Below are positions 15,651-19,966 of a stretch of 64,000 bases of DNA, one piece after another; the first letter of the stretch is position 1, and each line of letters begins with the position of its first letter. Origin of the DNA: Bdellovibrionales bacterium (GTDB lineage: Bacteria > Bdellovibrionota > Bdellovibrionia > Bdellovibrionales > UBA1609). The notes beneath the pieces were generated by a model. That model saw only the letters and a program-made list of their open reading frames with translations. It was not told the origin of the DNA and did not search any database. The stretch is from contig CBDHDF010000007.1 of NCBI GenBank assembly GCA_965261545.1, positions 384,001 through 448,000 of the forward strand. The letters are read 5' to 3'. A program made the position numbers and the translations under genes.

Positions 15651-15738
15651 GGGCTTGTCCAAAAATAAGTTGAACAATTCTAAGTTTTAAGTCGAAGATA
15701 AAAGATTTAAACTGTCCAATTTATTTATGGACAAGCCC
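15651..15738. mobile_element. 88-bp MITE with IS5-family-like ends
   Basis: 26-bp imperfect IRs GGGCTTGTCCA(A/T)AAATAA..; TAT duplicated on both sides. Confidence 0.8.
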
Positions 15739-15868
15739 TATGAACCTCAATGTTCACATTATTTTTATCCATACATAAAATAAAAATGAAAATGAAATAT
15801 CCTAGTTGTTCAAGTTATTTGGTTAAGAGCCCTTAGTTAGTCGCTGTCGCGAAATTAAAAAGGGCCGT

Positions 15869-17356
15869 TTATGTGCCCTCATTTGGACTTGGGCTCTGAA
15901 GTAGCCTCTTTTTAACTTTCCCTTGTTCTACCCACCCTTGAAGCTTGGAGTTGGCATCGTCACCGCTAAATTTCTCATAATTTGGTGCAGATTGAACCCC
16001 ATGGTCGAGCGATACCCCGAAGCCAGTGTGGCCCCATCCCCTTTCATCTTGCTTCTTGCTAATCCAAAGTTTTTGACATGCCCTATGAGAGGTTCGACCC
16101 CCGACCTGCGATTGTATAATTCTTCTTTCTGGGGGGCTTCGACCTGTTCTTTTACGTTGGCAGGTCTTTGAATTCCATCTGCATTTCCCACAACATCTTT
16201 GACGAGATTGACGTTGGCTTGTGAATAATACCCCTTGTCTGTTGTAACTGACTCTAAAATATCTTCGCCAAATATTTTTTGATGTTCTTCCAATATAGCT
16301 GGCAATGACTCCTTGTCGTCCATTCTCACAGAAGTGCAAGTATAGGGAACAATAAAATTTCCACCAATCCGCCCGACTTGGAAGACCCTCCCAAACTCCT
16401 TGTCTTTGCCTAACTTCCCCTTTTTGATACAGGCGACCGCACACAATTTGAAGGCAAGGATTTTGCCAGGCTTGATGGTGTGAGTTCTTACAAAATGGGC
16501 CACGTCCAAAAGGTATCTCCAAGCCTTGTCTCTCACTTCTGTGACGGCTTCTCGGTGGTTCCAAGGAAGACTCGCTAGAGCCTGTGGAGAAAGATTTTCT
16601 GCAAACCTTATAAAGGCTTTTAACTCTGACTTTACAAGACTGTGAAGGTCTGAAAATACCTCCCTCTTCTTCTCTAATACACAATTTTTGGCTAGAAAAA
16701 AATACTTTCGAGCGGCCTTGATGATGGCTTTGATATCTATGGTTATACCCGATGGTAAGTAGGTCTTCTGCTTTTCTTGAAGATACGAAAGAATTTTGTA
16801 ACACTTCTGAGCCAACTTTTTCAAAAGACTGGCATCGGAGGGATAAGCCATATTGGCTTCCTGAACGGTCGAATCGACATCCAAATGAGAGGCGTCTGCA
16901 AACCCCAGGGATTGAGCCAAGCGAAGAATATAATCTCCTATTTCTTTGTGAGTCTCTTCCGTCAGTCGATTGCGAAATTTTTCTATTTTCGTATGATCGG
17001 GACAACACCATTTTTTGAGGATATTTAGACCACAAAAAAGCTGATAACTGGCCGTTTCTTTTATCCGTTGCTCCACCCCTCGATCCGTGAGTTTGAATAG
17101 AACCTGAAGCAGCAGCACGGCTAGATGAACTCTTAAAAAGAGCTTTCTTCCTAGCCACCAAAAACCCTTTGCAGTCGTGGCTTTTAAGTCGGGCATGACC
17201 AGACACGACAGATAGCTCCAATCGACGTGGTTGGCCAGTTGAATCAGAGGATCGGATTCTGTGACGATAATAGATACCTTGGCAGGGTGGACCTTGGTTT
17301 CGAGGCCTTCTGGGCATAAACTCATAGCGATAATCCTTTATCATGAGGTGAAACAT
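15869..17356 (-). CDS. Candidate overprinted ORF in an alternative frame of the transposase
   Basis: Stop-free for 510 codons (15869..17401) with in-frame ATGs at 17356, 17344 and 17317; no recognisable motif. Confidence 0.4.
   Translation of the reverse strand: MFHLMIKDYRYEFMPRRPRNQGPPCQGIYYRHRIRSSDSTGQPRRLELSVVSGHARLKSHDCKGFLVARKKALFKSSSSRAAASGSIQTHGSRGGATDKRNGQLSAFLWSKYPQKMVLSRSYENRKISQSTDGRDSQRNRRLYSSLGSIPGVCRRLSFGCRFDRSGSQYGLSLRCQSFEKVGSEVLQNSFVSSRKAEDLLTIGYNHRYQSHHQGRSKVFFSSQKLCIREEEGGIFRPSQSCKVRVKSLYKVCRKSFSTGSSESSLEPPRSRHRSERQGLEIPFGRGPFCKNSHHQAWQNPCLQIVCGRLYQKGEVRQRQGVWEGLPSRADWWKFYCSLYLHFCENGRQGVIASYIGRTSKNIWRRYFRVSYNRQGVLFTSQRQSRQRCCGKCRWNSKTCQRKRTGRSPPERRIIQSQVGGRTSHRACQKLWISKKQDERGWGHTGFGVSLDHGVQSAPNYEKFSGDDANSKLQGWVEQGKVKKRLLQSPSPNEGT
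15928..17325 (-). CDS. DDE transposase, ISNCY/IS5-like
   Basis: PDHTKIEKFRNRL, DSTVQEANMAYPSDASLL, KEFGR, TDKGY, RSGVEPLIGHVK. Confidence 0.9.
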   Translation of the reverse strand: MSLCPEGLETKVHPAKVSIIVTESDPLIQLANHVDWSYLSCLVMPDLKATTAKGFWWLGRKLFLRVHLAVLLLQVLFKLTDRGVEQRIKETASYQLFCGLNILKKWCCPDHTKIEKFRNRLTEETHKEIGDYILRLAQSLGFADASHLDVDSTVQEANMAYPSDASLLKKLAQKCYKILSYLQEKQKTYLPSGITIDIKAIIKAARKYFFLAKNCVLEKKREVFSDLHSLVKSELKAFIRFAENLSPQALASLPWNHREAVTEVRDKAWRYLLDVAHFVRTHTIKPGKILAFKLCAVACIKKGKLGKDKEFGRVFQVGRIGGNFIVPYTCTSVRMDDKESLPAILEEHQKIFGEDILESVTTDKGYYSQANVNLVKDVVGNADGIQRPANVKEQVEAPQKEELYNRRSGVEPLIGHVKNFGLARSKMKGDGATLASGYRSTMGFNLHQIMRNLAVTMPTPSFKGG

Positions 17357-17381
17357 GGTAATAAGGTTAACAGGAGGCCCA

Positions 17382-17822
17382 ATGAAAAAGAAGCAAATCA
17401 TTCAACCAAGAAGGAAAGAACTTGAAAAGGCTATTAGTGATTTTTGTGACCAATATATAAACGATGAGTATAAAAACCTCTGTCACGGTGTAGTAGCAAG
17501 AATGTCTCGAAAAAGACAAGTCCCTTACATGACAGGAAGAGTAGAAATTTGGGCTGCGGGGATTATTCATGCCATTGGGAGAATTAACTTTCTTTATGAT
17601 AGCAAGACGTCACCATATGTTTCCATGGATGAGATTGTTGAGCACTTCAACACATCAAAAAGGACAGTGGGGCCAAAAGCAAAAATCATCATGGATATGT
17701 GTAAAATGAACCATTTTGACCCAGAATTCTCTACTCGCTATCTTCAGGAGAGGAGTCCATTTAAAAATCTTATGCAAATTGAAAATTATATTTATCAAAA
17801 AGACCACCTTGAAGCTGAATGA
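17382..17822 (+). CDS. DUF6398-like protein, IS passenger
   Basis: FCDQYINDEY, RKRQVP..G...WAAGIIHAIG.INFLYD, FDPEF; GGAGG RBS; lies inside the IRs. Confidence 0.7.
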   Translation: MKKKQIIQPRRKELEKAISDFCDQYINDEYKNLCHGVVARMSRKRQVPYMTGRVEIWAAGIIHAIGRINFLYDSKTSPYVSMDEIVEHFNTSKRTVGPKAKIIMDMCKMNHFDPEFSTRYLQERSPFKNLMQIENYIYQKDHLEAE

Positions 17823-18020
17823 TGGATTTCTTAAGTCTATTTCGCGACAGCGACTAGTTAAAGAGATAGTTATTGTTCAAATATAACTATTGCGATTCCA
17901 CCCTTTTTAAAGTGACTGTGTAGAATATTGAAAGTCATGTCTTTAGCTCCTAGGCTATCTGTCCAGCAGCGCAAAGTCACAGAATCTCCTGATTCGTTCA
18001 TTTGAATACGGTCAATGAGG

Positions 18021-18294: not shown

Positions 18295-18390
18295 AATTTC
18301 ACCTAGTTTGACCCACCCAATTTCACCTAGTTTGACCCACCCGATTTCACGAAGTTTGACCCACTGAATTTCACCAAACATTGACCCACT
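18295..18390. repeat. Four ~24-bp tandem repeats (IS21 left-end transposase sites)
   Basis: ATTTCAC(CTAG/GAAG/CAAAC)..TTGACCCAC x4. Confidence 0.85.
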
Positions 18391-18441
18391 TAGATCTTCA
18401 TAGATATTCTTTCTGCGCTACGCATTAACGAGGAGGTGTCT

Positions 18442-19966
18442 ATGGGCAAACAAGGTAAGAAAAAAGGAGCAAGAATGATCAACAATATTAAGAAATACAT
18501 AGAGCTTGGACTCAGTTCGAGACAAATAGCTCGAGCTATGGGTGTTAGTCGGAACACTGTGAAGAAGTATGTGAAGGATAGTCCCGGAGGCCCTAACAGC
18601 CGCTCAAAGGGGTCGCATGGGCCCTACCAAGCCCCATGGTCATCCAAGGTGAATTGGACAGATGTTCGCCTCAAGCAAAGCCTAGGGACTCAATTGGCTC
18701 ATTACTGGGAGCGACATATTCAGTCCGAGATTGACGGTGTGAGTTATCTTTCTTTTTGGAGAGAGTTTCGTCGGAGGCACCCAAGTATAAAGCTTGATAT
18801 GCACCAGACATTCACCCCTGGTGAACGGAGCCCGGAGTGAGTTTGACTATAAGGGAAAAGACTCTTGTTTTGGCTATACAGATGCCAAGACTGGGGAGTT
18901 CATCCCATGTCGATTATTTGGAATGATACTTCCATCGAGTCAGTTTTTCTTTCCATGCGCCACATTAACAGAGCAGCGGGAAGATGTTTTTTCCTCCATA
19001 GCTTCTGGTTTTGAGTTTTTTGGTGGTGTGACCGGAACCATTGCTTTTGATAACGCAAAGGTTCAAGTGACAAGAGCTGATACTTATGACCCCGATATTA
19101 ACTCTGAGTTTCACCTCTTGTGTGATCACTACAATGTGGCTCCTTTGGCGATGAGGCCATCTCGCCCCAAAGACAAGAGTCTTATCGAAAATACCCTTGG
19201 AGTCTTTTGGCGCTGGTCTTGGCCCCAGATAAGAGAGCGGCAAATGTATTCTCTAGCAGACATCAACGCTGAGTTGAAGCATTTGGCAGCTATTTTCAAT
19301 GATCGTATTCAAAAAAAGTATGGGTTGAGTCGTCGACAGAAGTTTGAATCTTTTGAGAAGTCAAAATTGAATCCTCTTCCTGAAAGACGCTATGAGAGTG
19401 GATTCTGGAAGCATTCCAAGGTTCATCCGGATTGTCACATTCAATATAACTACAATTTTTACTCTGTTCCTTATAAGCATCGCGGCAAGAAGTTAGATAT
19501 TCGTATTAGCCAACAATGCTTGGAGGTTTATTCAGAATTAGAGCGGGTGGCGATACATCACATCCCCCAGGGAAGTCGAGGGCGCTACTTTACGACAAAA
19601 TCTCATCTCCCTGAGTCCCACCGGGCCATTTTAGAGCAAACGCCACAAAATGTACTTAAAGAGGCATCAAGCCTTGGAGAAAGCATTCACAAAGTTGCCG
19701 AGCGGCTTATCAAAGAGCCTCGCCATCCGCTTATGTATCTTCGTCGTGTTCAGGGGATACTCAATCTAAGAAAACGGTATTCAACAGCTTCTTTGGAGCA
19801 GGCTTGCTCATTTTTTGTAGATGCAGCTTTAAGTGACATTAGGGTTCGTGGAGTTGAGAAAGTCATTTCAGCAAAAAGTCATCGAAAAGAGGAGCCAAGA
19901 GTCTGCCGTCAACCTAATGAAAATTTAAGAGGTTCAGAGCACTGGGAGAATGCTTGCCGCCACTAA
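18442..19966 (+). pseudogene. istA: IstA frameshifted by a 7-bp insertion at 18831-18837
   Basis: HTH in 18436..18840 and DDE core in 18794..19966; deleting CCCGGAG restores PGERSEFDY. Confidence 0.88.

Follow-up and report, generated by a model that had tools for sequence, protein, structure and literature searches.

A conserved stop-free reading frame nested in the transposase gene of a Bdellovibrionales insertion sequence, with an arrest-type motif and a possible braking function

Long open reading frames (ORFs) nested on the same strand within another bacterial gene are usually dismissed as annotation errors. A short nested ORF has been described in IS1414, an insertion sequence (IS) of the IS256 family. 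This ORF, astA, lies in the -1 frame of the transposase gene (PMC12585946), as does the ORF reported here, which is found in an IS element within a stretch of 64,000 nucleotides (nt) of a Bdellovibrionales bacterium (assembly GCA_965261545.1, contig CBDHDF010000007.1, positions 384,001 to 448,000 of the forward strand; hereafter the window, by whose first letter all positions are counted). Unlike the ORF reported here, astA has 38 codons and encodes a passenger toxin peptide, and the accessible text of that source describes no regulatory role for it. In IS5, the overlapping genes ins5B and ins5C inside the transposase gene affect transposition (PMC11677980), but they lie on the opposite strand and encode small proteins, and an arrest motif is not mentioned in the part of that source available to us. 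In IS911 and the IS3 family, frameshifting acts as translational throttling of the transposase, with a pause linked to co-translational binding in cis (PMC5009743), and in IS91 the upstream orf121, which overlaps tnpA in part, both permits and restrains it (bioRxiv 10.1101/2025.01.24.634351). As far as the available texts describe them, the known pause acts on the ribosome making the transposase and the ORFs overlap partly, whereas here the transposase ORF is intact and the pause signal lies in the other frame.

The other systems to be compared are arrest peptides. Arrest has been demonstrated for the cores RAGP (SecM), RAPP (ApdA, ApdP), RGPP and QAPP, and RASP, RSPP, HGPP, TGPP and QGPP are listed as RAPP-like, in the portion of PMC10987492 available; according to the accessible part of PMC12992588, arrest at RAPP and RGPP resists EF-P, RSPP is partly arrest-permissive and such motifs are under-represented in proteomes. 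The nested ORF resembles SecM, ApdA/ApdP, the RQH family and CruR in its motif set and in the little sequence conservation upstream of the motif (PMC10987492, PMC12992588, PMC9426467, each as far as accessible). In contrast, the known RAPP-like members described there are short and control a separate gene located downstream of them, with the motif close to the C-terminus and, in most of them, a localization signal, whereas the nested ORF has about 490 codons, overprints a whole gene and runs on for 55-90 or more codons beyond the motif. Judged from its sequence, it would work like a RAPP-type arrest peptide by its motif, but it falls outside the class by its architecture. A literature search that could not reach ISfinder or most subscription papers turned up neither a full-length nested ORF nor an arrest motif in any transposase gene, and the system is real, conserved and apparently undescribed.

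The initial annotation of the window had pointed out a frame of 510 codons without a stop (15869-17401, minus strand) that covers the entire 465-amino-acid (aa) transposase on the same strand and lies within the IS ends. Coordinates and lengths proved correct, and the codons of this frame are indeed composed of transposase codon positions 3-1-2, i.e. it is the -1 frame (Table 1). It ends 59 nt past the transposase stop. The ATG at 17401 falls antisense within the passenger gene of the element, and the start positions in homologues favour the ATG at 17356, which is therefore the likely start. Over the transposase, the -1 frame contains no stop, as compared to 32 in the +1 frame and 22, 23 and 25 in the antisense frames. 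The reported absence of T-ending codons from pairs that would create a stop also holds, since a synonymous T is found at none of the 95 sites where it would make one, but at 124 of 266 comparable safe sites. None of 100,000 within-gene synonymous shuffles, a null that had been suggested along with the annotation, gave fewer than 13 stops in the -1 frame (mean 28.0). Other long ORFs of the window, including the other transposases, do have -1-frame stops, again as annotated, and a genome-wide comparison of 1666 ORFs (300 aa or longer) leaves only six with less than one stop per 100 codons in this frame, all of them copies of the transposase.

The same frame is open in diverged homologues. Among 143 distinct transposase genes aligned over more than 350 residues (shorter and broken genes were dropped), 44 have no -1-frame stop (8-28 expected in each) and six a single one, while partial depletion is seen in 15 and a count close to expectation in the other 78. 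Open members reach down to 25 % identity, with five at 24-27 %, and include named records from Bdellovibrionota, Myxococcota and Pseudomonadota, while the closed members mainly form one large clade, together with Legionella elements. The partly depleted members are placed among or beside open ones, which fits decay of an open frame; a FastTree tree gives at least nine changes of the open state, with long-branch warnings. The end of the element lies 85-135 nt past the transposase stop in most open and decayed elements, and 20-35 nt past it in most closed ones with a located end. For the further statistics, the sets were dereplicated at 85 % identity, leaving 38 open, 53 closed and 11 decayed elements, and were reduced again for analyses that required full-length elements. 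Chance, base composition or a codon-pair artefact would be conceivable for GC-rich members, which expect only 8-12 stops, but AT-rich members are open as well (e.g. 0 vs 27), the shuffles of the gene in the window never came near zero, and the trait has a bimodal distribution within the family and is confined to this transposase in the host genome; this explanation is already refuted and keeps virtually no probability. The view of the initial annotation that selection acts on the open frame is strongly supported.

Within the genome, the only copy with a -1-frame stop (L005, G000:C7:362143-363770) differs at four positions in all, with the stop at the base matching window position 16855, where the change is silent in the transposase. 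This copy is cut from its upstream end by other sequence, with a breakpoint matching window position 17467. As a single anecdote, it fits purifying selection through transposition. A depth-3 contig of sequencing run X5 contains the L005 variant and the breakpoint, plus a 24-nt loose end, which we take to resemble an adapter of a complementary DNA (cDNA) kit; being one contig, it was not used as evidence. The contigs of three of the five listed runs show the presence of the element only. As a side note, gene callers at times choose the nested frame over the transposase, which yields hypothetical proteins of 330-530 aa that are orphans and in part chimeric (P0121-P0128).

What the initial annotation had overlooked is an arrest-type Pro-Pro motif, RSPP in the window, whose position is conserved across the family. 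When every dipeptide was scanned in every 20-codon window, the top outlier was Pro-Pro (PP) at codons 390-409, found in 30 of 31 open elements (3.9 expected) and in none of 47 closed ones. With a stricter null that preserves serine codon families, PP or RAGP occurs at the site in 36/36 open (6.6 expected) and 2/53 closed elements (3.8 expected). Arrest motifs named in the literature, i.e. the class of RAPP, RGPP, RAGP, QAPP and RSPP, are present in 30 of the 36 open elements (1.4 expected), none of the 53 closed and one of the 11 decayed ones. Elsewhere in the -1 frame no excess is seen (5 vs 4.6), nor is there one in the +1 frame. A form of the motif is found in each of the 42 open elements that extend to this region, i.e. 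QGPP (17), RAPP (10), RGPP (5), CGPP (3) and, once each, RSPP (this window), RAGP, AGPP, QAPP, EGPP, KDPP and NGPP; in a distant clade of about 25 % identity, RAGP is present in six of eight members and RASP in one. The distance to the codon of the catalytic Glu is 6, 9, 10, 11, 12 or 14 codons, and the motif is always in the -1 frame, over differing transposase residues. Its occurrence in several registers, yet always in this frame, suggests that the peptide rather than the DNA is what counts. Two further candidates were discarded: the enrichment of the dipeptides KK, KQ, KS, VC and VY is likely an artefact of a null mixing serine codon families, and a second, VemP-like RxxxWKxxN motif after Pro-Pro was rejected, with Trp at 6 vs 4.4 expected.

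The annotation had further proposed that the frame may encode a regulator of transposition, and a regulatory role is indeed the best reading. On balance, we lean towards the -1 frame being a cis-acting, ribosome-stalling regulatory ORF that is overprinted on the transposase gene and brakes its synthesis. Ribosomes would initiate 16-40 nt ahead of the transposase start codon and run over the ribosome-binding site of the transposase, which would set the two starts in competition. Accordingly placed start codons of the -1 frame are present in 31/33 open, 5/11 decayed and 8/48 closed elements, a comparison that partly includes openness near the start. The frame is kept stop-free while most of its amino acids drift, and after about 400 codons the ribosome would pause or arrest at the RAPP-like motif, shortly ahead of the catalytic Glu codon. 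Transposase ribosomes loaded later would queue behind it, holding a chain with the N-terminal domain but without the catalytic Glu, and the full enzyme would mainly come from ribosomes that enter a new transcript before the blocker does, or that finish after release. The result would be a lower yield per mRNA and a synthesis biased to early rounds near the element's own DNA, i.e. a cis preference; for IS911, pausing that aids co-translational binding in cis is described in the available text of PMC5009743. The pause is probably transient, with released ribosomes running to the end, because the frame stays open past the motif and at least 44 nt beyond the transposase stop. EF-P was found in the host genome, which is 96.8 % complete; an Smr domain was not found in this 96.8 % complete genome.

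Several points weigh against this braking function. Related elements are non-independent in all family counts, and 78 of the 143 relatives manage without an open frame. The codon window of the motif scan was picked after seeing the data, and the finding of PP or RAGP in 49 of 60 database proteins called in the -1 frame across the site (18 of 264 background windows) was obtained with a search profile that contained the motif, two of the matches corresponding to a locus already counted. L025 and the fragment L022 have an open frame without the motif. Constraint upstream of the motif is not seen, codons 361-390 standing at 1.05, and only 13 of the 31 upstream starts have a Shine-Dalgarno (SD) sequence of -3.5 kcal/mol or below, with none at ATG 17356 of the window. 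According to the parts of PMC10987492 and PMC12992588 available, most RAPP-like 4-mers from ordinary proteins gave no arrest, upstream residues being needed, and Arg is irreplaceable in ApcA, ApdA and ApdP (PMC12992588); QGPP, the commonest form here, is RAPP-like by listing, and its arrest is not demonstrated in the accessible text of these sources. The RSPP of this window is, as reported there, only partly permissive. Stalling at the motif is a prediction, then, and at its weakest for QGPP and the forms without Arg. L025, which corresponds to L207 (G078:C55), scores above the NCBIfam IS5 cut-off (NF033578), has 0 vs 28 stops in the -1 frame and lacks a recognised arrest motif; it may rely on a different stall sequence, or represent a case of its own.

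A further difficulty is given by the frame beyond the motif. Among 28 elements open over codons 1-390, picked by these codons only in order to avoid a circular choice by stop count, codons 410 onward contain one stop vs 78.1 expected, and the -1 frame extends at least 44 nt beyond the transposase stop in 26/28, as compared to 12/28 in each other frame. A pure roadblock has no need of such openness, and the brake leaves it unexplained. It is explained if the -1-frame ribosomes serve as an escort, i.e. cover the mRNA against Rho termination inside the transposase gene, with the pause timing or shielding transcription near the 3' end, so that the frame promotes full-length mRNA. Such a function is compatible with a brake, although as the explanation of the frame we consider it rather unlikely. 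The free sites after the motif, in open elements only, are poor in C (0.14 vs 0.27) and rich in A (0.40 vs 0.22), which is in line with this idea, as are a Rho_N match in the host genome and the precedent of the stalled ribosome of CruR (available part of PMC9426467). In 28 of 33 open elements, however, the transposase is preceded by an SD of its own, so that its own ribosomes could cover the mRNA, and a stall leaves the downstream RNA naked. Single-sequence folding of 20 open and 20 closed elements also shows this region to have less structure than expected (z +1.0), a state in which Rho would load more easily. Moreover, closed relatives occur in Legionella, a host that has Rho. Conserved RNA structure after the motif was rejected as a candidate feature, the same folding having given less structure rather than more, and a promoter scan was at chance level (4 vs 3.4). 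Taking the brake and the escort together, we are fairly confident that the frame works through its ribosome.

The part of the initial annotation that did not stand is a conserved second protein, which is not supported over most of its length. At safe 4-fold sites, identity in open and closed elements is 0.302 and 0.310 (60-70 % aa identity), 0.376 and 0.345 (70-80 %), and 0.583 and 0.567 (80-90 %), i.e. synonymous sites are as divergent in open as in closed elements, so that the second-frame amino acids are mostly unconstrained. Over codons 1-390 no purifying selection on them was seen, and such selection was evident only for the Pro-Pro motif. AlphaFold, given 32 aligned nested products, returned an unfolded model (predicted local distance difference test, pLDDT, 34; predicted template modelling score, pTM, 0.14), a result that a shallow alignment can also yield. 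The nested protein has no family match in Pfam and NCBIfam, and a homologue search with the single protein gave one match, P0003, a chimera of both frames. The N-termini from the probable starts are, by eye, hydrophilic and unconserved, with no conserved N-terminal signal evident. Scores of 0.94-0.95 to transposase-associated clusters of the ESM Atlas were not used, as a wrong frame can give such scores.

The products could nevertheless act in trans as basic, disordered proteins, e.g. as a nucleic-acid-binding inhibitor whose function comes from charge and a short C-terminal segment including Pro-Pro. They are basic and hydrophilic (isoelectric point 9.3-11.7 in 38 products), and synonymous change over codons 391-450 is slowed to about two-thirds in open elements (observed/expected 46/68 and 47/74), but not clearly in closed ones (155/140 and 124/142). 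The composition biases are, however, largely common to closed elements, and the dual-frame substitution comparison suggested at the outset gave signs that disagree, i.e. among 12 disjoint pairs, C-T changes silent in both frames are slightly ahead of those with an effect on the second frame (34/115 vs 252/1130), while A-C changes go in the opposite direction (21/187 vs 67/430). Furthermore, positions 439-441 keep their base across different amino acids. With neither a family match nor a fold, we regard a trans-acting protein as unlikely. Codons 437-441 of open homologues (e.g. L073, L128) retain third-position bases across differing second-frame amino acids, a pattern poorly matched in this window, and the bases at codons 439-441 suggest a possible nucleotide signal about 100 nt after the motif.

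The frameshift product that the annotation offered as an alternative fared no better, since it leaves unexplained why the nested frame begins at an upstream start of its own and lacks stops throughout. A programmed shift would join the frames, e.g. where ribosomes slip by +1 at the Pro codons or where queued transposase ribosomes slip by -1, and the resulting hybrid would lack the catalytic Glu. IS elements commonly use frameshifting (PMC5009743, as far as available), a -1 hybrid would need the downstream frame open, and chimeric database proteins such as P0003 exist, which could equally well be indel-damaged copies. But frameshifting needs no upstream start together with 400 open codons, the alignment of codons 392-450 shows by eye no common slippery site, and the downstream RNA is under-structured, which makes this explanation very unlikely.

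Coming back to the brake, conservation of the nested frame extends to transposases of only 25 % identity, and the closed and decayed relatives serve as natural controls. If the brake is real, it would represent a new arrest-peptide architecture and a new basis for cis preference, and the frame an example of a bacterial nested ORF of great length that is kept for being translated rather than for its product. Whether a widespread class of IS elements regulates its transposase by a traffic block in another frame of the same gene, with an ORF of about 500 codons that places a ribosome at an arrest motif next to the catalytic Glu codon and with trailing ribosomes being held with near-complete, inactive transposase by the element's DNA, is in our view an even call. 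Two questions, i.e. how IS elements limit transposase and favour its acting in cis, and whether the translation of an overlapping frame can be a function in its own right, are thereby opened to changes that leave the transposase protein intact. RAPP-like arrest motifs, which are avoided in proteomes, are extended to hidden frames invisible to proteome-based searches, and a search of further mobile genes for frames that combine an absence of stops with arrest motifs suggests itself.

Table 1. Position of the insertion sequence, its genes and the signals of the nested frame in the window
Feature	Position	Strand	Remarks
Insertion sequence, 2015 bp	15840-17854		16-bp perfect inverted repeats at both ends and 6-bp target duplication
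Target-site duplication TAGTTA	15834-15839, second copy 17855-17860	+	6-bp flanks match
Terminal inverted repeat, transposase-downstream end	15840-15855		16 bp
Terminal inverted repeat, transposase-upstream end	17839-17854		16 bp
Nested -1-frame ORF	15869-17356	-	Stop-free; ATG at 17356 is the probable start (495 aa), 31 nt before the transposase start
DDE transposase, 465 aa	15928-17325	-	DUF772 and DDE_Tnp_1 (Pfam)
Inferred catalytic residues	D151 (codon at 16875), D363 (16239), E411 (16095)	-	From invariance
RSPP arrest-type motif, -1 frame	16130-16141 (read 16141-16130)	-	First Pro 14 codons before the catalytic Glu codon; 86 codons follow the motif
Transposase codons 408-432, after the motif	16030-16104	-	Open elements as a group: A-rich, C-poor free sites, little RNA structure, slow synonymous change
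Shine-Dalgarno-like AAAGGA of the transposase	17334-17339	-	From sequence; inside the first codons of the nested ORF; duplex energy -5.4 kcal/mol
Passenger gene, DUF6398	17355-17822	+	Pfam E 1.5e-38; divergent from the transposase; likelier start 17382 after AGGAGG

The transposase is a single intact ORF with all three putative catalytic residues and is not split over two overlapping ORFs as in IS1 or IS3. D151, D363 and E411, invariant in 40 close and seven distant homologues, probably form the catalytic triad. The N-terminus of the transposase at L213, a locus of the host's phylum, is the same as in L126, a Bacteriovoraceae-type record, in line with a host that probably belongs to Bdellovibrionota. 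The best NCBIfam models are IS5 and ISNCY, both below their cut-off (NF033578, IS5_1, 174.3 vs 275 bits; NF033593, 141.3 vs 325 bits), and residues 403-418 carry the Y-(2)-R-(3)-E-(6)-K signature. Since target duplications of the IS5 subgroup are usually 4 bp long, as opposed to 6 bp here, the element was not assigned to a subgroup. A plasmid search gave a 38 % match in Legionella and distant IS5-like matches, and a phage search gave no match.

The genome harbours two further full-length copies (99.95-100 %), two copies split by later insertions, and fragments. The 6-bp flanks match at five insertions of the element across the genome, which, together with the perfect repeats, points to recent movement. 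The other copies also carry the DUF6398 passenger, whose start and that of the transposase are only about 30-56 bp apart. In the close relatives L046 and L047, the inverted repeat instead lies about 110-120 nt before the transposase start, and the 3' ends of L137, L060, L069, L074, L077, L079 and L092 have in common a short palindromic sequence, resembling repetitive extragenic palindromes (REP-like), just inside the right inverted repeat. Outside the element, an imperfect palindrome with 38-nt arms is located at 15651-15738, about 100 bp from the IS end, and three repeats with 24-nt spacing (18296-18375) precede an IS21-like transposase split over two frames (18436-19966).

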